A stretch of 63,973 nucleotides of DNA, counting the filler, from Reclinomonas americana ATCC 50394 (lineage: Eukaryota), in assembly GCA_048213135.1 (NCBI GenBank). It is 21 parts of 21 records of this genome, joined end to end, with 100 filler letters (N's around TTAATTAATTAA, not from the genome) between each part and the next. Parts side by side here need not be neighbours in the genome. Positions count along the whole stretch, not along the records: positions 51,053 to 56,281 come from AFZH01019649.1; positions 56,382 to 59,980 come from AFZH01019650.1; positions 60,081 to 62,856 come from AFZH01019653.1; 18 more parts are not named here. One strand, written 5' to 3'. Both the position numbers and the translations under genes were made by a program. Under the pieces are notes generated by a model. The model had not been told where the DNA came from. It saw only the letters and a program-made list of their open reading frames with translations, and made no database searches. Shown in pieces: positions 13,109 to 63,973 of the stretch (position 1 is its first letter; the number at the start of each line of letters is the position of its first letter).

Positions 13109-13185
13109 TGGCGAGCCCGACAGGATTCGAACCTGTGACCAGCAGCTTAGAAGGCTGCTGCTCTATCCAGCTGAGCTACGGGCCC
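13109..13185 (-). tRNA. tRNA-Arg(TCT)
   Basis: GGGCCCGTAGCTCAGCTGGATAGAGCAGCAGCCT-TCT-AAGCTGCTGGTCACAGGTTCGAATCCTGTCGGGCTCGCCA, 77 nt with encoded CCA. Confidence 0.97.
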
Positions 13186-50952: not shown

Positions 50953-51211
50953 NNNNNNNNNNNNNNNNNNNNNNNNNNNNNNNNNNNNNNNNNNNNTTAA
51001 TTAATTAANNNNNNNNNNNNNNNNNNNNNNNNNNNNNNNNNNNNNNNNNNNNCGACTGTGGCGAATCCCCTGTGCACCACGGAGGCGAGATCTGGAACGA
51101 TATGGTGCTCGATCTGAGGCCAGCGTCGCCAGCAAAGGAGTGAAGCGACACACTGCTGGAAGAATGCATCAAAACAACTGCGTTAATAATGGTGTACTGT
51201 GTGTTCAATTG

Positions 51212-54200
51212 TCAGTGAGCTTTGCCCCGACTGGGAATGATGAGTGCCTCGAGACTCATGAATGGCCGCTCCACCAGCAAGTACAACAGGTACGACCCGA
51301 CGTAGGCGACGAATATGGCACCGCAGCACTCCACCGTGATTGCCTGCATGTAAGAGAGAGTGTCAGCAACCTCTCCGCACACACAGTGGCCAATGACTGG
51401 CGCGTACCGGAATCGAGTACTGCACAGAGAACAAAAGACATTCAGTCACAGTGCGGAGGACAAGAATGCACCGAGTATTGCTCACCTCGAGGAAGTGCGT
51501 GCGCATCGAGTACGACATCTGAATCCCTGCGAGTGAGAGGACAAGATGAGTGATGCACACGGTACCGGCGGTCACACCAATATACAGACGCACAGGCCGG
51601 ATGCAGCAGGTAGGCGCCGTACGTGAGCCGTGCCAGTGGTGTCCAGTATTCTGCACATCACACGCAACGTCAACATCATACCACGCAACTCCACTGGACA
51701 CGCAACAACTCACCCGCCGACAGGAATCGACGCCACAGATTCGTCACAATCACGAACCGGAACGAACTGCGCCAAGACAAGTATCTGCATCAGCGTCTGC
51801 GTAGACGGAGGAGAAGAAGCGTGTTCGAGACTTGCCTCTTCTTCACACTCTCAATCATCAAGTACAGCATCACCGCAAGCGCGAGACACCAGGCCGGACG
51901 ACTGAATGTAATGTACATGACCTGGTGGTAGTGGTAGTGTGAGATACAACACGCATCAGAAACTCTCGCAGCGACGAAACATTGTTGATGTCGCCCGGCG
52001 TCCAGTTCTGTCCCAGTGACTCGTACAGATTCACCGGACCAAAGACGCACGCACCAAACACCGCAAAGCACGCCAGGTATAGCAGCCAGTGCACCGCAAC
52101 CACCGACCGCGACTCGGAGGTTTGCTCCGCAGCCAGCTTGCCGGTGCGGAATGCCTCCAGTTCACGCTCACGCGCCGCCTCACGCTCGTGCAACACAAAG
52201 GCCAGACCCTGCAAGAATGACGAAGAGTCAGCCACACCCTTCCCACCATTGACGAACAGAGATAGACGTACCACGCCAACCAGGTACGCGGGAACTCGGG
52301 CCCACGGTCGAGCGTAGTAGTAGTTCCTGCAGCAAGCAGAGAAAATGGTCTGTTAGTATCATGGAAGCGTGAGCCAGCACCACAATTGCAGATACCAGTA
52401 GTCGTCATTGGGAGCAATCACATAGAACCACAGTTGCTTAAAGTGCACCACGAGTGCCTGGCCCACCGAAGAAATGAGCAAACATCGACTCCACATCTGA
52501 TTAGCAACCACAACTCACCGACGACAAGAGGCTGCCAAACATCACCACTCCAACCAACGTCCAACCCAACCACCGTCGACGAGCGTACGCGAACAAGAAG
52601 ATCGGTGTAATGGCAAACGCCCAAAAGTCACAGGCCAGGTACCTGTGCAGGTGCGCGCAGGCACTCAGAGGGTTCACTCACAGACATTGTACACGAGAGC
52701 GACGCATGCGCACCACACCCATGGAACGCATTGTGTGTCAAAGTCCCAAGGATAGACCGCATTGAGGAAGAACAACAGTGGCTGCCGACACAGACGAGAG
52801 TCAGCGTCGCATCAGTCAGTAACTATAACGACTACAACCAACCGTCCACCAATACTTGGAGCATCCAGTATCATAAATCGTCTGATACTGAGACCAGAAC
52901 GGTCCATCGCCCACATACGGTGTCAGCTGTGACAAAACGACGACGACGGTGGTGGTGAACACCAAGATCCTCATCAGCACCACGCTTTCACAACCGCAAC
53001 ACTCACCTTCCACACCACAAAGATCATCACCGCCAGACTCGGAGTCAGTCGCCAGATGCGATGGAAGTAGTACAGCAGCAGGTTGAGCGATCCACGCTTC
53101 GGTGGTTCTGTAGGGCGACAGCAGGAGTGTCAGCTGAGGATCTCGTCAGTGGTGAAAGCATACGAGAGATCAAACCATCCAGTCGCTGGTGTGGCAGCAG
53201 CGCTCCGAGGGCCAGATGCGCCACCAACAGGCCCGACAGCATGAAGAATGTGTCGACTGCGAACCTGTGTGCCTGACTGTGAGAAGAGAGTGACAGCATT
53301 GTCTGGCATGTTCGCGACACGGAACTCAGCTGCAAACAGCAACGCATGGGTGAGTACAATTCGTGACACTCATGAGGAAGAAAGACAAGCCACTCACCGC
53401 CAGCAATAATCGCGACAGGCCACTGCGTGCCGAACCCTCCCGGCATGAAAACAGACACCACATTATACACGAAAGCGAGTGCTTCAGACTGCGCGTGTCC
53501 AAGAATACTGGCATCACGAATCGGTCAGCTGGATCTAATCACAGAGGACCAGCACACATTCGCAGCGTCGTCACACGCACATCCAGAACATGGACAACAC
53601 TCGAACACCATTCAGCACTTTCAGTGACCGATCCGGTGACGGAGCGAGAAGCTTTCGCGTGTTTGTGATGGCCGACCATGACAGGAAGAACGTCCGCAGA
53701 ATGTCGGAGCACGACCGCCGTGGCTTCTCCAGCTCTGATTCACACAAGCACACGCACACTGTCACACGGGTGATGGAGAAGCAACATGCATCATCAAGGT
53801 GCAGACGGAACCTGGCAGCTGATACACGATATCTTTCCCCGATCCCTGCACCGAGTTGGAGTGCGGTCGCCGACGAGTCTCGCCGGTGACCGATGAGAAG
53901 TAGCCACTCGTCGTCCCTGCGCGAACGACAAGAGAGTTGGTCAGTAATTTGTGGCGACTTCTTGCGCAACCGGGCCCGGCGCACCGTTGCTTCCGAGCAA
54001 CAGGGAGGTCTCCGTTGGCGCTGCCTGCAAGAGAGTGTGAGGAGAGGCAATCTGATTTGACATGTGCGAGTGCGACAGTCCACGTAACAATGCTGTGGGC
54101 AGCCGACGATGAGGATGGACTCGGTCGCGACGAAAACAGATCGACCAATGATCCTGCTCGGTGCACGGGGTGAGCATGACTGAAGAGAACATGCATTACT

Positions 54201-55039
54201 CTTCACACACACATGCACCAATCAGCACCAGCGTGCCGAGACCGGCCAGCAGTACAATGGCGCCTCGTGCTTCACGCGGCAGTGTGTGGACGACCTGCTC
54301 ATCGGTGCACGACGCGGTGATGCTGCGAAACGCACACACATATACAAAAATTACTCAACGCCCAATACACAGCAGCACCGAGTACGAAAGGAAGCGCAAC
54401 GCAGAAGCGGGAATCGGGGTCTTGGGGAACAGCAAACTGATAAACTCGGCTGCGGTGGCCGGCAGCGTCTCGGAGGTGCACGATCGCGGCACACACATGC
54501 CGATCATGGGCTACAAGGCAGCTTATAAGAAGCAGCGTGCACCGGCGACCGCAAGTACTGCACACACGCACCGGAACCGTCGGATTAACTTTCACCGTCA
54601 CCAGGCAGTAGTGCGCCGACGGAGTGAGATCGGGCTGGATGCAACGCTTGTAGTCGCCTGTGACGAATGAAAGACAGGTGAGCAGCCGGCAGCGGCAACG
54701 TTTGATGGCAACGCGAGGCACCTGCATCACGCGGCGGAGATTTGCCGGTAGACTCGTACAGCTATTTATGTGTGGATGAGATGAGCATGACAGCGGTGAG
54801 GGGGGAAGGGAGAGCAGCTGAAGCAGCAAACCATGGCCTCAGCACCAGGGTAGCTGCGCTCGTAAGCAAGACGGAGTTGCATGAGCATGCGGCGGGTAAA
54901 TGCATGCACACACACAATGCAAGAGACGCAACGTTCCGGCAAGCACTGCACCCCAATCATCTTCACACTTGTCAGCGTGGACAGCCGTTGTCGCGCACAC
55001 CAACAACACCGCCACCACGACAGTGAGCGTGACCCGCAT
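51212..55039 (-). CDS. Eukaryotic multi-exon NRF-6-like O-acyltransferase (acyltransferase 3)
   Basis: Signal peptide; GDYKRC..HYC; VLNGVRVLSMFWIILGH; AVDTFFMLSG; RPWARVPAYLVG; WTPLARLTYGAYLLH; LLVERPF; GT-AG introns. Exons not all resolved. Confidence 0.85.
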
Positions 55040-55196
55040 CGCGGCTCCTCGCACGACGGCGATGACAACACAATGATATGCAGGACACGCTTTTACGTCG
55101 CCGTCTCTTCTCTTTTCCACGCTTCGCCTCATCGTCCCTCCTTTGTTCTCTCTAACGCAAGTGATCATTTCTTTTTCTTGGTGGCATGTGGGGTTT

Positions 55197-55212
55197 GGCG
55201 CTCATAAGCGCC
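55197..55212 (-). other. Histone 3'UTR-type stem-loop downstream of H4
   Basis: GGCGCT-TATG-AGCGCC (6-bp stem, 4-nt loop, U at loop positions 1 and 3), flanked by TCAAT and AAACCCC. Confidence 0.65.
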
Positions 55213-55377
55213 ATTGAAAGAAAATAGAAAGGAGTGCAGCCGCCAAGAAGGAGGCACGCAGTCACACCGATAGTGGTGTGCACGTGTGGGCCCGTGCCCT
55301 GCAAGTGGCCGCCAACAACAGCAGCCAGAACTGAAGGTTGATGTTGTTGTTGTTGTGGAGTGGTGGGTGATGATGAT

Positions 55378-55713
55378 TTATCCACCAAAGCCGTAGATGG
55401 TGCGGCCCTGGCGCTTGAGCGCGTAGACCACGTCCATGGCAGTGACGGTCTTGCGGCGGCCGTGCTCGGTGTAGGTCACAGCGTCGCGAATGACGTTCTC
55501 GAGGAAGGTCTTGAGCACGTTGCGGGTCTCGTCGTAGATGAGGCCCGAAATGCGCTTGACACCACCACGGCGCGCCAAGCGGCGGATAGCCGGCTTGGTG
55601 ATGCCCTGAATGTTGTCACGGAACACCTTCTTGTGGCGCTTGGCGCCGCCCTTGCCCAGGCCCTTGCCGCCAGAGCCGAATCCCTTTCCGCCGCCCTTTC
55701 CGCGTCCAGACAT
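55378..55713 (-). CDS. H4: Histone H4 with extended N-terminal tail (111 aa)
   Basis: [25 protein letters not shown]...[24 protein letters not shown]. Confidence 0.98.
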
Positions 55714-56088
55714 GCTTGCTTGTTACTGCACACACAGAGAGGGAGGGAGAGCATGAGCAACCACGTTCAAGCGGTGGGTATGGAGGAAGTGACGAGCTTT
55801 GCTCACCGAAGTGATCAGAAAAATCTGTGAGTGAAAGTGATGGGAGATTGGCGCCAAATGAGTGGCAAACCGATTTCCCGCCTTCCACATTCGGATTCCC
55901 AAGAGGGGTGCATCTCCGCTCATGCACCACGCATCCGTCGACCTGGGGTTTGCTGATCTCACCCGTTTTCAAGTGTTCCCCGTGAGCAAAGGTCGGCCAC
56001 CCCCCTTCCTCCGTTTGCTTTTCCCTCGCACAAGTCTTCTCACTCACCACTTCATACACACGCACACAGTCAACTACTCTCATTCATC

Positions 56089-56219
56089 ATGCCGCCGAAG
56101 ACCGCTGCTAAGGCCCAGAAGGCCCCCAAGGCCGTGAAGAGCGCCCCCGCGTCCAGCTCTGCTGACAAGAAGAAGAAGCAGAAGAAGCGTGTGGAGACCT
56201 TCTCGTCCTACATCTACAA
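56089..56219 (+). CDS. H2B: Histone H2B, first exon (truncated)
   Basis: Lys/Ala-rich tail then KKRVETFSSYIYK, followed by GTTGAGT and intron-like sequence. Confidence 0.9.
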
Positions 56220-56417
56220 GTTGAGTTTTCCCTCGCTCACTCTCTCGTCAAGTGTGCATGTCAAACTGACCTTGTATACAANNNNNNNNNNNNNNNNNNN
56301 NNNNNNNNNNNNNNNNNNNNNNNNNTTAATTAATTAANNNNNNNNNNNNNNNNNNNNNNNNNNNNNNNNNNNNNNNNNNNNCACTCACACTCATACTCGC
56401 ACTTGTCTCTGCCACAG

Positions 56418-56897
56418 AGCGTGCGATTGTACTCGGTGTCTGGCAACGAAATGCTGCGCCAGTGGTCACATCGCAGTGCAGCGCTCGATTGCGCCTTTGG
56501 CTCCGACGCCAACGAGTGCTACTCGGGCGGTCTCGACTGCCGCGTCATACGGTACATGCACTCACACTCTCTGTCACACACATGCATGCATGCATCAATT
56601 TCTGTGCATTGCATTTTGACTTGTCCCTCCCCTCTCTCTCTCTGTCTCTCAGGTATGAACCGACGACGGGTCAAGAGGTGCTGGTTGGCGAGCACAGCAA
56701 GGCGGTGCGGTGTGTGGAGTACTCGGCGGCGCAGGGCATTCTGTGCTCTGGATCGTGGGATGCCACGGTCAAGCTGTGGGACATGCGGGCGGCGCAGGTG
56801 AGGGAGAGGGAGAAGAGAGGGGGGAGAGAAGAAGGATAGGAGGTCAGCAGCGTTTCTTGGATCGCTCTCGTCACACCTCTCTGCACCGATGTCTGTA

Positions 56898-56930
<33 letters not shown>

Positions 56931-57733
56931 GCGTGTGTGAGGCTGTGTGTCGAGCTGGTGCGCTGTTGTCGTGTCGCTCAGATCTCTCTGCGTACACAGT
57001 CGGTGAGCACGCTGGAGGTGCCGGATCGTGTGTATTCCATGTCGGTGTGCGATCAGGTGTTGGTGGTGGCCACGGCCGAGCGACATGTGTTTGTGTATGA
57101 TTTGCGGAGACCCGACAAGCCGGAGCAACGTCGTGAGTCGGCGCTCAAGTACCAGACGCGGTGCGTGTCGGTGTATCCGAATCGCGAGGGTTACGCACTC
57201 GGCTCGATCGAGGGTCGTGTGGCGATGGAGTACTTTGATCCGTCGGAGGTTTGTCCTTTCAGCAGTGTGTTGTCTCGCTCTCCACTGTGCCCACTCTCTC
57301 TCCCTCTCGTGTACACAGGCGGGTCAAGCACGCAAGTTCGCCTTCAAGTGCCACCGACAAAAGATCAACGGCATCGACCATGTGTATCCGGTCAACGCCA
57401 TTGCATTCCACCCGGTGTATGGCACGTTTGCGACTGGCGGTTGCGATCGCAAGGTGTCGATGTGGGACGGCGGCAACAAGAAGAAGCTGGTCGATTTCGA
57501 GTACCCATGCAGCATCGCGTCGCTCTCCTTTAGCTACAATGGTCTGCTGCTGGCGGTTGCGTCGTCGTACACATTCGAGGAGGGCGAGAAGGAGTTGCGC
57601 CACCACACCAAACACACATCTATCTGTGTGCCACACATACTCTTTTCTCACACGCACATGTGCCCGCGACAGTCACGCTCCCGACCAAATCTTCATCCGC
57701 ACTGTGGCCGACAAGGAGGTGCGGCCCAGGTAA
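56418..57733 (+). CDS. BUB3: BUB3 spindle checkpoint WD40 protein (multi-exon, 5'-truncated)
   Basis: [65 protein letters not shown]. Confidence 0.92.
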
Positions 57734-57871
57734 CGCATCGTGGTGGCATGTAGCACTGCGCCGCGCTCTCAGGCTGGCTGGTGGTTTGTTTTTTTGACGA
57801 CGGCAATACTGCGATGTGTGTGGGGATGAAAAAATGCAAGACAGGTTCCAGTGGTATTTATTTCTTGTGAC

Positions 57872-59535
57872 TCATGCATACGAGCCAAGCTCCATCGACA
57901 TGAGACTCTGCTCGTTCTTGTCGTTGCATCTGCGCGGCAGAGAGAGAGCACAAGCAGCAACAGTGCGTGGTCAGCAATCTCACCCACTGCGCGTGATTGT
58001 CAGAAAAGCTGACGACGCAACGGCCACAAGTCGTCCTTGGGACACTCGTGTGGCTTGAACGATTCGCCCTGCAGCAAACGTGAGTGTGTGCGCCACCCAG
58101 TGCAGGTCAAGCGCGTGTGTGCGCCGACGCAACTCCAAAATTAATGGGCTCCAGCAGCTCGGAGAAGCAGGCGGGATAGTCGGGCGACGTCTCTAATCTC
58201 AGTGTGCTGGCCCGCCCCGTGTGCAACAGCAAATTGTACTTGAAGGCGAACGGCCGACGGCCGCGTGTTTCCGAGCGGCTGCGCTCGGTCTCGCCCAAGA
58301 ACCACTCAACCAGCAAGTGATCTGGTGGCCGACGGGCCCATCCCTCGCGGAAGTACGACGCCAGCACCGCCACATCGCTGAAATGCACGAGTGCACCATT
58401 CAGGCCGAAGGACACGCGAATCGCCGACCATTGCTCGCCGCGCCGCTCCTCGGCCTTGTCGGTGATGTAGAGCAGTGTGCGCAGGGAGTGCGGGCAAAAG
58501 TTCATGTCGTCCTCGGCCAGCATAAAGTACTGCGCGCCGCCGTCGTACCTGCCAATAAACATGTGAGGAAGAAGAAGAGGCGGTGACCACAGCATCCGTG
58601 GCACGCAACTTGGCCACCGACTCCAGCAGCATCACCACATCGCGTGTCTGCTCCATCACCCGTGAACTGGGCACATTGGGGCTGCCTCGCGTGTCGGGAA
58701 ACGGTTGCAGTTGTCCCTTGGAGCGCGGCTCATTGTCGCGAAAGGCAAAGTGCGCGGCCAGCATCGGGTTGCTGAGGAACTCGCGCTTGAGGTTCTCATA
58801 CACCGGATGCTGGCCGGGGCGATTGTTGAAGATGACGAAAAGCACCTTGCCGAACAGCGGGTGCGTCGGATGCCGCGGCAACTCGCGCGCAATCGATCGC
58901 AGAGTGCCGGTGAGGTAGTCCTCGCGCGCGCGTGGAATCGTGGGAATCCCGACCACCAGCCATCGCTTCTGCCGATCGTCCATGCTGGCGGCCAGTGAGC
59001 TCGTCGCCGCGGGAATGTTCGGGCACGGTGGTGGCTCCGGGCAGTCTGTAAGATCGTCGTCATTGCAAGCTTCTCTTTGCTCACCACGATTCAGCACGTG
59101 CAACGCACCCTCCAGCACCTCCACCACCACATCCTTTGTCGACGAAGACGATGCAGCAGCAGCCGCAGCCGCAGCCGCAGCTGCAGCAGCTGCTGCAGCA
59201 GTGGCCGAGGGCGACGCAACTGCACCGACCTCGCGACACACCGCCCGCAATCGATCGACATCCTCGCGCAACGCATCCAACTCGGTGGAGAACTCCTGCA
59301 CCGCCTTTTGCGTCTCCTCCGCCTCCGCATGCCGCTGCTCCCGCAACTCGGCACACGCGGTCGCTGTTTCCCCTTCCCCCTCCTTGGCTACAGTGTCCTT
59401 TTCGCCCACGTGCACCACATGCGCCTGTCGCGGTGTCGACGTGTACACCCACACAACGAGCACAAGGAAGACGCCGGTCAGCGCCAACGCCACCTGTCGC
59501 ACAGCAGGCGACGACACTGACGACGTTGGCGCCAT
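57872..59535 (-). CDS. Type II membrane GT-A glycosyltransferase, MGAT4/GT54-like; introns 58549-58609, 58069-58133, 57930-58021
   Basis: N-terminal TM anchor, stem with poly-Ala, VGIPTIPR..DYL..TL, QTRD, YFMLAEDD, PPDHL, LHTG..STL, DDLWPC after splicing. Confidence 0.75.
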
Positions 59536-59598
59536 CCACGCGTCACACTGAGACAGGCTGTCCTCCCCGTGTCCCCTTTGTGTTTGTGTGGATAGGAG

Positions 59599-59922
59599 AT
59601 GTGGTCGTTCCTCGGCAGTGTCTTGTGCTACTTGCTGTACGCGCTGGTGGCGGCTGTGCTTGTGCAGTGCTCAGTGGCACTCTATCGCATGTTTGTGGCG
59701 CCTCGAGAGTACCGCGGCAAGCATGTGTTTATCACTGGAGGATCCACGTTGCGTCGACGACTCTGTGTCTCTCTGTGTGCATGTTGCTCTGTGCTCATTG
59801 TGTGATGCAGTGGCATTGGACTGAGCATTGCGCACAAGTTTGCCCGTCGCGGAGCGAATGTGGTGGTGTGTTCGCGCACAGAGAGCAAGCTGCGAGCGGC
59901 TGTCGACGAGCTGGAGAAGAAG
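59599..59922 (+). CDS. SDR, 3-ketodihydrosphingosine reductase-like (first two exons; intron 59748-59810)
   Basis: N-terminal TM then KHVFITGGSTGIGLSIA...GANVVVCSR..SKL after splicing. Confidence 0.75.
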
Positions 59923-60253
59923 GCGCGTCTCTCTCTCTCTCTCATTGGCACCCCAGTCCAGCTGTGTGACTTTGTCGAGCNNNNNNNNNNNNNNNNNNNN
60001 NNNNNNNNNNNNNNNNNNNNNNNNTTAATTAATTAANNNNNNNNNNNNNNNNNNNNNNNNNNNNNNNNNNNNNNNNNNNNTTCGTGAATGCATCGACTCG
60101 TTGCGAGAATGTCGGCTTCTTCTGCTGTGCAGAGGGTGGTGGTGGCGATGATGCACCCTCCACTCTCGCATGTGCGCCGTCCTCCACCATGCCACACCTT
60201 CTTCGCTCGCAGAGACACAAGAGAGCAACGAAGAGAGCGAGTAGAGACAGGGA

Positions 60254-61542
60254 TTGATGATTGATCAGATCCGTCCGTCTTTGGTCGTGTTTATTAATAG
60301 TGCGGATCGGAGAGTTGTCTTTGTGATGAACGCGTCGGTGCTGGAGGATCTGAGCGAGTTCGCCGTGCATCACAACCTGCGCCTGTTGCGTAAGCGTGTG
60401 GGCGAGTGGATCCGATCGGGCGACGAGGAAGCATCCGCGTGGAGCGATGAGGAGGTGGAGGCGATCCTCAGCGATCGCGATCGCGTGGCGGCGAGACTGG
60501 CGGCGATGCCGCGAGAGGCGTGCGTGTTGGTGACGACTGGTACGTTGTGTGAGGTGTGATGTGCGTGTGTGTATGCGTCTCTGTGGTGCCGACGAGCCAA
60601 CAGGATCGTTCTGCCCGCCGCATCGGAGCCATTTCAAGGTCGGTGTGCGTCGTTTGTCGTCCACTGACAACTCCCGCTGACGGTAGACGCAGTTGTTTCG
60701 TGCGGCCAAGAAGCACTTGGAGGCGGAGCCACGCAACCTGCACGTGCTGGCCGGTCTGATGTCGCCGAGTCATGATGTGTACACGTCGTCGAAGCTGCGG
60801 CACGAACGCGGTCACATTCCGTCGATGCATCGCCTGCGCATGCTGCAACGGGCGCTCGATGGTGAAGAGGAGCTGGCCGACCTGCGCGAGTGGGTCACGG
60901 TGGATCCGTGGGAGTCGTGTCAGGAGGGTTTCGTCAACTTTCCCAGCGTGGTGCGCCACCTGCAGGCGGAAATCGACGACATGTTCCCCGGGCTGCGCAC
61001 ACTCTACCTGTGTGGGGAGGATCTGTGTCGCAACTGCAACCTCTGGTTCTATCCGTTGCGTGGGGGAGATGGGCCCGCAAAGAATGTCGTGTCAAGGTAA
61101 TAATATCTTTGTCGCGTGGCAGGCACGTGGTGTGTGTTCGTCGACGCGAGTCGGATGCAGACGGTGATGAAGACGACGATGATGACGACGACGACGACGA
61201 CTTCTACCGCCAGAGGAGAAAGGTGCCGGCCAACACCAAGTGTTACGTGGTGGACGCGGACCACGCCGAACCCGACACGTTGAGCAGCACCACAGTTCGG
61301 AATCGCGTTCGCCAAGTTGCGTGGCTCCTGTATCACCAATGCTGCTGGGAATGCACTCACCAGTGTGATCCTCTCCCGTGTGCGCAGGGTTGGTTATCGC
61401 AGCTGCAGAGATCCCAACACATCTGCTTCCTTGTTCTGACTCCTATACAGGCAAGGGCGTGTCGCACATCACCTTTCCGTCCGTCGAAGAGTACTTGATC
61501 GAACATCAGCTGCTGACCTCGTCGAGACGGCATGACAAGTAA
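60254..61542 (+). CDS. Nicotinamide/nicotinate mononucleotide adenylyltransferase-like (multi-exon; start uncertain)
   Basis: Spliced TTGSFCPPHRSH (HxxH), SPSHDVY, HRLRM, VDPWES.Q, YLCGEDL, LSSTTVR, PSVEEYL. Confidence 0.75.
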
Positions 61543-61640
61543 GCAGGAGGGCACACACAACACAGCCTGTAACCAAGTAAATTCGTGACAACAGATTCTA
61601 GAGAGAGATGAAGAGAGAGAGAGTCAAACGGTCGGCGTTG

Positions 61641-62712
61641 TCACCGCAGCTCCACGTGCAGTCGGTCGCGAGTGAGACACCGCACGTCCTCCTGGATGTC
61701 GTCGACCTCCTCGTTGGTCATGCTCCGTTCCATGCTGCGGTATGTGATGCGGTAGCACAGGCTGCGACGGCCAGTCTTCGGGTGTTTAAAGTCGTCGATG
61801 CGCTTGACAGTTTCCACCAGGTCACCGGCACGTTCGCGCACCAACTCCATGAGGTCGTTCTCCACAAACGGTGCCGCGGCACTCTCCCAGAAACTCATGT
61901 CCTTGAAACATGGCGGGTACTTGCTGAAGGGTCGGAACTTGACAATCTCGCCACGCCGGAACTGCGAGGTGAATCGCTCGTCTGCGCACATACTCAGCAA
62001 AGGCGAGGCAGGATGTGGGGTGCTGTCACCGGCGCCTCACCATCAGACCAAAACAGACGAATGTCGGTGATCTCAAACAGAATCATGGCCAGTCGATCAA
62101 GACCGAGACCAAAGGCCCAGCCGTTGTCGCGGTCGGGTACGCCACACTGCTGCAAAATCTTGCGTGCCACCACGCCACACCCCAGCACCTCCATCCACTT
62201 GTCGTTGTAGTAGATCTCCAGCTCCAACGACGGATCCGTGAACGGGAAGTACGCCTCCACCCAGCGCATCTCCACGTTGCCAAACAGACTGCGCGTCACC
62301 GACTCGAGACGCGCCTTTAAATCGGCCTCCACCAGTGCCGTGGCCACTGGAGCGTCGGGTGAACTTCCGGGCAACTCGCCCGGTGAAAAGATCCGCACAC
62401 CCTCCATCTGGTGAAACACCGGGTAGTGATGGCTGTCGACTTCATCGCGGCGGTACACATCGCCGGAGCACAAAAAGGCACGATGGCCGGCACGAATCAA
62501 CTGCGATACCAGAGGGAGGTCAGCGCAAGAGTGTGTGGCGAAGGGGAGACGGGCCAAACCTGATTCTGATGTGCCGATGTGTGAGTGCGCAGCAGTGTCT
62601 GCGAGTCGTAGTAGTATGTGTCGTGAGGTGATCGACTGACGTGGTCGGTGGGGATGAGCAGCTCGTCAAAGTTCTGCTGCACGGTCACCCGAGGCGGCAG
62701 CGAGTCGGCAAA
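61641..62712 (-). CDS. FARS2: Mitochondrial/organellar monomeric phenylalanyl-tRNA synthetase (multi-exon, 5'-truncated)
   Basis: NFDELL..DH.SR...[53 protein letters not shown]-terminal anticodon-binding [10 protein letters not shown]. Confidence 0.93.
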
Positions 62713-62784
62713 CTGTGCATGCATGCAGGCATCGATGCATCAGCGACAAATGTCAATCTTCAGCATGCACAAAATGCATGCATT

Positions 62785-62787
<3 letters not shown>

Positions 62788-62837
<50 letters not shown>
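62788..62837. repeat. (CA)n microsatellite, about 25 units, intronic
   Basis: Direct reading. Confidence 0.95.
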
Positions 62838-62838
<1 letters not shown>

Positions 62839-62956
62839 CGCACGACAACAGTACGGNNNNNNNNNNNNNNNNNNNNNNNNNNNNNNNNNNNNNNNNNNNN
62901 TTAATTAATTAANNNNNNNNNNNNNNNNNNNNNNNNNNNNNNNNNNNNNNNNNNNN

Positions 62957-63120
62957 CTTCCCCCTTCTCTTCCCCCTTCTCTTCCCCCTTCGCTTCCCCC
63001 TTCGCTTCCCCCTTCGTCTCCCCCCTTTGGTCTTCTCCCTCCGTCTTCCCCCCTTCGCTTCCCCCCTCGTGCTTCCCCCTTCGCTTCGCTTCCCCTTTCT
63101 CTCTCTTTTCTTCCTACTTC
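62957..63120. repeat. Polypyrimidine 12-mer tandem repeat CTTCCCCCTTC(T/G), degenerating
   Basis: Direct reading; about 5 clean units then decay. Confidence 0.85.
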
Positions 63121-63145
63121 TCACCCCCTTCCCAATGTCATCAGC

Positions 63146-63640
63146 GCCTTGCCGCCAGCGCCACCGAACTCCAAGAGCTCACCACCGTCCGCGACGAATT
63201 CGAATCCTTCAAAACCAAAGCCGCGGAATGGAAACAGCGCGTGCAGCAAACAAGCGACGCCGATCGTCAGCGCATCGCCGAACTCGAGGTGCAATTGGTG
63301 AGCGAGCTGCCCACCTGAGCGAATGCACTGTGAGTTACTCACATCTGTCCACAGTCTGCATCTGCCGGCGGTGCGTCGGCCGACGCGTCGCTGCAGGACA
63401 CGTTGCGCGCGCAAATCGGTGCGTCCAATTCATCTCGTTTCTCGCGTGCATATCATCACCTCATTCAGCCGATTACAGCAACCCTCCAACACGAATTGAG
63501 TGGAGCGCGCCTGGATGCCCAGCAGTCGTCGGAGGCCAAGCAAGGTGAGCAGCGCTCCCTGATCTCTTTTTTGTCTTTCCCTCTCGCTGACTCCCTTCCC
63601 CTCCCAACAGCGCTGGTCGCCGAACTCGAAGAGCTGCGAG
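63146..63640 (+). CDS. Exons of an unidentified coiled-coil protein (partial)
   Basis: RLAASATELQELTTVRDEFESFKTKAAEWKQR...RIAELE, with further short exons bounded by CAG| and |GTGCGT, |GTGAGC, |GTTTGT. Confidence 0.5.
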
Positions 63641-63973
63641 GTTTGTGTGTCTCACTCAAAGAGGGGAAAAGGCAGCTCAGCAAATACACGTGAAAAGAGA
63701 ACAAGAAAGAGAGAGAGAGAGAAAGATAGCACTTCCACACTCTTCTCCTCCTTCGGACGAGTGACAGAAAAAGGCAGGCTTGCGGCGCGTACGCACAGTG
63801 ATACACTTTGCAAGAACGAGTGATAGAGAGAGCAAGAAAGGGGCTGGTTCCTCTCTCTGTCTCCCACTCTCTCATTCACTCCCTCTTTCTCTCTTCCCAC
63901 TCTTCCCTCTCTTCCCTCTCTTTCCTCTCTTTCCTCTCTTTCCTCTCTCCCCTCTCTTCCCTCTCTCTCCTCT

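Follow-up and report, generated by a model that had tools for sequence, protein, structure and literature searches.

The stretch of DNA analyzed here (63,973 bases, hereafter the window) raises the question of how introns that begin with GTTGCG(T) are recognized in eukaryotic genes which also use introns with ordinary 5' splice sites (donors). The introns lie in the last four of the 21 contigs of the window, and these contigs are assigned below to the nucleus of a jakobid flagellate. In the four contigs, roughly one in two short introns begins with GTTGCG(T) and not with the GTRAGT type, which suggests that many splice sites in this DNA are read one base out of register.

A second class of donors beside the ordinary one

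The original prediction was built on six donors and all of them were found in the sequence as listed, with GTTGCG at 54932 (-), 57594 (+), 58021 (-), 58133 (-), 58609 (-) and 59748 (+); the two look-alikes named with them, GTTGCGT at 61316 (+) and GTTGAGT at 56220 (+), are also present. Three further GTTGCG donors were identified in our study at 61055 (+), 54400 (-) and 53970 (-). Gene models were built by coordinates from the reading frames and homologs, and all of these models give open frames. GT..AG ends together with a restored frame were observed in 14/14 complete modelled introns and in 9/9 introns of the provisional model of an NRF-like gene. Splicing at the six predicted donors was found to keep the frame as claimed, since removal of the GT..AG introns leaves open frames; five of these junctions (57594, 58609, 58133, 58021 and 59748) are moreover supported by homologs or profile coordinates independently of the motif, and 54932 is a frame-only assignment. 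Among the frame-keeping GT..AG pairs within 45 nucleotides of the GTTGCG donors, no alternative resembling an ordinary donor was found.

In the Bub3 gene, intron 4 (57594..57672, +) starts with the donor GTTGCGCC behind an A at exon position -1 and belongs to the shifted class; its removal restores EGEKD/HAPD as in Bub3 homologs. The MGAT4-like glycosyltransferase gene on the minus strand carries three such introns, namely intron 1 (58549..58609; donor GTTGCGTG at 58609, -1 A), intron 2 (58069..58133; donor GTTGCGTC at 58133, -1 A) and intron 3 (57930..58021; donor GTTGCGTC at 58021, -1 C). The homolog P0001 crosses all three junctions gap-free, and at the third one ...DDLWP/C aligns with its ...DDMWPC. 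No other frame-keeping donor lies within 45 nucleotides of 58133. The homolog search with the glycosyltransferase exon gave one match among the 8000 candidates sharing most words, a poly-Ala stretch probably crowding the candidates. Intron 1 of the short-chain dehydrogenase gene (59748..59810, +; donor GTTGCGTC, -1 C) is placed by the frame and by the Pfam adh_short profile, exon 1 ending with ...TGGS and exon 2 beginning at position 10 of the profile.

The NMNAT-like gene contributes intron 3 (61055..61122, +; donor GTTGCGTG, -1 C), which keeps the frame, and intron 4 (61316..61455, +; donor GTTGCGTG, -1 A), which keeps it only with the AAG acceptor at 61453-61455. Exon 3 of this gene matches NMNAT structures with E = 1.1e-4; it gave no match in a large sequence database, and exons 4 and 5 gave no significant match when searched singly against PDB. 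A CAG is located five bases before the AAG acceptor of intron 4 (61445-61455, +), and its use would break the frame unless the cut at the donor moves by one base. In the H2B gene the donor is GTTGAGT (56220..56226, +; -1 A); the frame departs from the histone sequence directly after ...SSYIYK, and the acceptor lies past the contig end at 56281.

The NRF/acyltransferase-3-like gene is described by a provisional ten-exon model which is open for 297 residues and uses GTTGCG in three introns of the minus strand, each placed by the frame only: intron 1 (54854..54932; donor GTTGCGTC at 54932, -1 C), intron 5 (54323..54400; donor GTTGCGCT at 54400, -1 C) and intron 7 (53917..53970; donor GTTGCGCA at 53970, -1 G, the sole exception in the class). 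The open reading frame (ORF) of this gene had two matches among representative sequences, both of them repetitive junk, and its codon-usage profile was too weak for exon placement. At 53393-53397 (-) of the same gene, GGTGAGTGG offers the donors GTGAGT and GTGGCT four bases apart, and the frame with the downstream acyltransferase motif is kept there only by the GTGGCT donor or by no intron.

The two classes were compared in a table of 29 donors; 15 of them are modelled, and the other 14 were hand-picked by eye from the NRF-like gene and the contig at 62957-63973, this second set being non-exhaustive. A G at exon position -1 precedes only 1/11 of the GTTG[C/A]G donors as against 17/18 of the others (Fisher P = 5.8e-6), and the same separation is found in the modelled set (0/8 versus 7/7, P = 1.6e-4). 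The G at +5 is likewise missing from the second class (0/11 versus 14/18), which instead has G at +6 in 11/11 and U at +7 in 8/11 donors. The tetramer UGCG occupies +3 to +6 in 10 of the 11, the matching positions of the ordinary donors being variable. The two exceptions at -1, 53970 of the second class with G and 53580 of the ordinary class with T, are both provisional. Donors of the GTTTGT and GTTTGG form have U at +3 and still retain G at -1 and at +5, which is ordinary behaviour. The form of the acceptor did not differ between the classes in the donor table, and intron lengths are 61-140 nucleotides in the second class and 54-202 in the ordinary one.

Alignment of the donors on the part that is conserved gives G-[G/U]-U-G-[A/C]-G-U for both classes; the cut falls after the first G of this heptamer in the ordinary class, and before it, at the only GU present, in the second class. 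The view that GTTGCG is a canonical donor displaced by one base is in agreement with this alignment. Because of the class signature at -1, +5 and +6, GUUGCGU can be understood as the ordinary G/GUGCGU read one base earlier.

With regard to frequency, 7/14 complete introns of the homolog- and frame-based models begin with GTTGCG. The share of GTTG[C/A]G is 8/15 among the donors of these models, with H2B included, and 11/29 when the 14 provisional donors are added. The modelled gene spans contain 471 GT dinucleotides and 13 GTTGCG on the sense strand, and 7 of these 13 start introns (hypergeometric P = 5.6e-9). On both strands of the 12,621 eukaryotic bases GTTGCG was counted 26 times, the mean under a first-order Markov model being 12.0 and the maximum of 500 simulations 23. 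An exon parse that made no use of the motif (GT/AG and codon usage, penalty 6) recovered 6/13 known donors exactly, three of them GTTGCG, and is too imprecise for an unbiased census. Within the sample the GTTGCG donors are thus real and recurrent, and the class they form is both distinct and frequent; as the sample covers no more than 12.6 kb, a major class in the whole genome would be an extrapolation.

Ordinary GTGAGT and GTGCGT donors had been noted beside the GTTGCG donors, and they stand unaltered in the same contigs. Three ordinary introns precede the GTTGCG intron of Bub3 (all +): intron 1 (56552..56652) with G/GTACAT, intron 2 (56798..56999) with G/GTGAGG and intron 3 (57249..57318) with G/GTTTGT, the last having T at +3 and yet G at +5 in the canonical register. 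In the NMNAT-like gene, intron 1 (60540..60603, +) begins with G/GTACGT and is assigned by the frame only, and intron 2 (60639..60692, +) begins with G/GTCGGT, a GTGCGT six nucleotides downstream being equally able to keep the frame. Two introns of the mitochondrial-type PheRS gene, 62501..62559 (-) with G/GTTTGG at 62559 and 61982..62040 (-) with G/GTGAGG at 62040, were also found by the motif-free parse. The PheRS exon gave matches in the protein atlas at the level of the family only.

Some further copies of the motif were observed. GTTGCGT occurs inside exons, apparently unused, at 57556 (+), 59220 (-) and 60385 (+); the copy at 57556 shares ten identical bases with the real donor 58021 and lies 38 nucleotides before the real Bub3 donor. 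The provisional GTGAGT donor 51713 (-) is followed by three copies of GTTGCGTG, at 51706, 51689 and 51668, and the provisional GTGAGT donor 53006 (-) directly by GTTGCG at 53000 (region 53000-53011). These copies behind ordinary donors look like tandem or decoy donor sites.

Pairing register and the competing explanations

We consider it moderately probable that these are genuine GT-AG spliceosomal introns whose donors are read in a register shifted by one base, with two donor classes side by side in a jakobid. In the proposed mechanism, the ordinary class G/GU[G/A/U]NG[U/G] would need its G at -1, and its pairing with the 5' end of a U1-type RNA would follow the textbook register. The second class N/GUUG[C/A]GU would offer the same U1-facing heptamer with U replacing the second G; owing to this replacement the only GU would lie one base upstream, and the cut would be made there. 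The docking site of the recognition RNA would be displaced by one base relative to the point of cleavage, and the catalytic core would then take the GU. From the donor sequences we infer a pairing register displaced by one base, and also that the RNA involved is probably not identical to the textbook U1 at the base opposite the C at +5. Pair counts are consistent with such a displacement, being higher in the shifted than in the canonical register in 9/11 second-class donors, and favouring the canonical register in 11/14 ordinary donors scored. The original prediction had allowed for bulged or shifted U1 pairing. Its shifted form agrees with the distribution of G at -1 (1/11 versus 17/18), and its bulged form does not, for the preference for this G is lost.

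There are several points which weigh against the shifted register. Duplex energies were calculated by nearest-neighbour folding in RNAduplex with the textbook sequence of the U1 5' end, which may not be the organism's own, and the second class reached a mean of -1.6 kcal/mol with no stable duplex or consistent register (-7.5 kcal/mol for the other donors). The shifted-register fold was obtained for 1/11 second-class donors, only the GTTGAGT of H2B, and the canonical-register fold also for 1/11, weakly; the latter was formed by 18/18 ordinary donors (one mixed). U1 pairing in the form first put forward, with the textbook 5' end, is hence not borne out in any register. Moreover, the C at +5 is present in 10/11 second-class donors and in 7/18 at the matching ordinary position (P = 0.008); it is a mismatch to the textbook U1, and therefore a plain shift with a standard U1 explains the data poorly. 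Six of the 13 sense-strand GTTGCG in modelled genes are exonic and unused as donors, and therefore the motif by itself does not make a donor. Two of the eight modelled second-class donors, 61055 and 61316, are without homolog confirmation; the frame at 61316 depends on an AAG acceptor that follows a CAG, and the contig with the H2B donor does not reach the acceptor. Choice by eye produced the 14 provisional donors, among them the ordinary donor 53580 with T at -1. Further, the junctions were placed by frames, homologs and a profile, and all the introns come from 12.6 kb in four contigs.

The weak pairing of the GTTGCG donors with the textbook U1 makes a changed or second U1-like RNA a live alternative. 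In a what-if calculation, a U1 with U changed to G at position 5 folded with 7/11 second-class donors purely in the shifted register and with three more partly so; the mean of the second class became -4.8 kcal/mol, and the ordinary class remained canonical.

The main rival to the shifted register is a dedicated RNA for the second class, either U11-like or a variant of U1, whose 5' end would be fully complementary to GUUGCGU; two recognition systems would then operate in parallel. We regard this rival as unlikely. It would account for the poor fit of the second class to the textbook U1, for the absence of a preference for G at -1, as in U12-type donors, and for a uniformity far above that of the ordinary class (UGCG at +3 to +6 as well as C at +5 in 10/11, the latter in only 7/18 ordinary donors). 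Precedents are on record in the available parts of the sources, with co-evolved or second U1 forms in Entamoeba and Mastigamoeba and a mixed situation in Physarum (preprint 10.1101/2022.06.08.495308), and in a diplonemid (PMC12621601). On the other hand, a likeness to the U12-type signal is absent from all 11 donors, and no common branch-site motif marks the second class. Rfam at gathering scores found no small nuclear RNA in the 63,973-base window, the sole match being a bacterial tRNA gene at 13112-13185 (-), and the nearest genome (G001), which is that of a clean bacterium, contains no U1 either. The aligned heptamers of the two classes differ at a single position, and therefore the one-base shift is the simpler reading. 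In its full form, in which a free-living jakobid would combine a textbook U1-type system for G/GURNGU with a variant U1 or U11-like RNA for GUUGCGU serving about two-fifths to half of the introns, we find the proposal quite unlikely.

A bulged register appears very unlikely. In this case a standard U1 would pair through G+1:C8 and U+2:A7, the extra U at +3 would be bulged out, and GCGU would pair as positions +3 to +6. The motif is indeed GUGCGU plus one U, and one-base bulges at +2/+3 have been validated in human 5' splice sites, where they are rare according to the accessible part of PMC4856993. However, a bulge leaves C9 free for a G at -1, which the second class does not carry, and RNAduplex returned no bulged canonical-register duplex for the second-class donors with the textbook U1. 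The shifted register is preferred over the bulge because the G at +1 takes the place of the G at -1, which a bulged U at +3 would have kept.

That the motif is an artefact or an accident of sampling (an extra T, wrong gene models, or a motif rare in the genome and unrepresentative contigs) is highly improbable. In its favour, the contigs are stray fragments only 1-5 kb long, and they yielded no more than 15 modelled and 14 provisional donors. Against it, GTGCGT and GTGAGT donors are intact in the same contigs, and the loss of G at exon position -1 is not something that an extra T would cause; homologs or profile coordinates fix five of the junctions, and at least four genes on two contigs use the motif as a donor, with frame-only cases on a third. 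A systematic overcall of T was rejected on these grounds.

Two known kinds of intron were also considered and rejected. U12-type introns do not fit, as 0/11 donors carry the minor-class donor box and the branch candidates vary (the defining motifs were taken from general knowledge). Introner-type copies derived from transposons do not fit either; the 23 intron bodies share only low-complexity matches of 12-15 nucleotides, and in the absence of a common sequence they are not copies of one element.

Origin of the contigs and other features

The 21 short contigs of the window are joined by N44-TTAATTAATTAA-N44. Contigs 1-17 (1-50952) have a G+C content of 61-68% and long ORFs and are bacterial (Bosea); a 651-residue ORF is 98% identical to Bosea vestrisii, and the nearest genome, that of a 6.4-Mb bacterium (G001), has 66% of the sampled words of the window in common. 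The last four contigs (51053-63973), at 51053-56281, 56382-59980, 60081-62856 and 62957-63973, have a G+C content of 56-59% and short ORFs only, and these features together with the H4 cluster mark them as eukaryotic nuclear DNA. The genes found on them are also eukaryotic and encode histone H4, H2B, a Bub3-type WD40 protein, the MGAT4-like glycosyltransferase, the short-chain dehydrogenase, the NMNAT-like protein, a mitochondrial-type PheRS and the NRF-like acyltransferase-3.

The organism was named by the intronless histone H4 gene (55378..55713, -). The encoded protein has an exact match in the protein collection, derived from EukProt, and is identical in 110/111 residues to the expressed sequence tag protein EP00694_Reclinomonas_americana_P003924, with which it falls into one 90% cluster. 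Both proteins have in common an unusual Gly-rich insertion of eight residues in the N-terminal tail. On this sequence evidence the four contigs are assigned to the nuclear DNA of the jakobid Reclinomonas americana or a close kin, the naming resting on one conserved protein. Bub3 had no close relative in the database, its top matches being 67-74% identical over one exon and mostly from plants. The jakobid DNA is co-assembled with the Bosea bacterium, in a bacterial assembly carrying contigs of a protist that grew alongside. Jakobids are bacterivores and are kept on bacteria, which would account for the mixture of bacterial and protist DNA. A search of the 3.6-kb eukaryotic contig against 401 genomes of the family of G001 gave low-complexity matches only, of 24-59 bases, and a degenerate H4 pattern, which matches the window itself, had no match in the genome-contig or metagenome-contig collections.

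The H4 (-) and H2B (+) genes form a divergent pair within 55378-56219 with about 375 bp between them. Pyrimidine-rich runs ending in AG lie directly upstream of the two start codons, at 55714-55760 (-) and 56030-56088 (+), and are reminiscent of trans-splice acceptor sites; no search for spliced-leader evidence was made. A long (GT)n microsatellite is present in the 5' part of the PheRS locus at 62790-62840 (-), and CT-rich tandem repeats occupy both ends of the last contig, at 62957-63130 and 63860-63973 (+).

Comparison with other eukaryotes and meaning of the finding

Donors are recognized almost universally through U1 pairing in the canonical register, and the only known cases of a shifted or bulged register are rare human exceptions. 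In human donors, the available part of PMC4856993 puts the validated non-canonical registers together at about 1.5% of 201,541 sites, and only 68 of these sites are predicted to use the bulge +2/+3 register (Roca et al. 2012, via PMC4856993). Shifted-register human 5' splice sites were described by Roca & Krainer 2009 (via PMC4856993 and PMC9311317). The jakobid class is similar to the human shifted sites in that all pairs of the helix move over by one position, with cleavage still at GU, and in that the canonical complementarity is poor. The human sites are a handful of atypical cases, whereas the jakobid class comprises 8/15 to 11/29 donors and is marked by a rigid heptamer and by a C at the place where A would suit the textbook U1. 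With the bulge +2/+3 sites, which are very rare in humans, the class shares a donor of the form GUU... in which the downstream bases fit the consensus after one U is skipped, but the -1G preference predicted for that register is absent.

Changes of the donor in a whole lineage are known from few protists, mostly intron-poor ones. In the portion of the preprint 10.1101/2022.06.08.495308 that is available, Entamoeba has the donor GUUUGUU with a U1 of AACAAAC (GUUUGU in 87.9-89.5%) and Mastigamoeba has GUGCGC with a changed U1 base, whereas Thecamonas and Mamiellales keep a standard U1; a second U1 form is given for a diplonemid in the corresponding part of PMC12621601. The jakobid class resembles the donors of Entamoeba and Mastigamoeba in being an atypical protist donor that carries U at +3 or C at +4 and extends to +7; for those organisms the explanation given is a changed U1 base. 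In the Entamoeba type, according to the same source, a single new consensus has taken over from the old one, and pairing stays in the canonical register; the jakobid, in contrast, has two classes (11 versus 18 donors in the 12.6 kb sampled), of which the second is displaced by one base. The two also differ in that Entamoeba is intron-poor, whereas the jakobid genes in the window are intron-rich.

Like U12-type introns, the second class occurs in the same genes as the ordinary one and has a rigid extended donor with no preference for G at -1. It differs in an unrelated donor sequence (0/11), in the absence of a shared branch-site box and in a share near half of the sample; minor-spliceosome introns make up a very small share of introns elsewhere.

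Within the jakobids, Andalucia godoyi is the only species for which a description of the nuclear genome was found in the open-access literature, and no description of the GTTGCG motif or of jakobid donor signals was found there. According to the accessible part of PMC7050145, Andalucia also has GT..AG introns throughout but, unlike the DNA studied here, is intron-poor, with 107/864 surveyed genes containing introns and 134 introns of 151 bp on average. An 877-nucleotide intron is given for the Rpl7a gene of Reclinomonas in the part of PMC1201135 at hand.

If the shifted register is true, docking of U1 at a position displaced from the point of cleavage can be a regular mode of splicing in a deep-branching and intron-rich jakobid, serving two-fifths to half of its introns. 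Such a genome would provide a natural system in which to study the way the cut is fixed by U6 and U5 while U1 is bound out of register. Gene prediction in jakobids would also be affected, as standard donor models would miss such introns. If instead the reading with two recognition systems is true, the jakobid would possess a second class of introns that is a major one, whereas in other eukaryotes the U12 class is rare.

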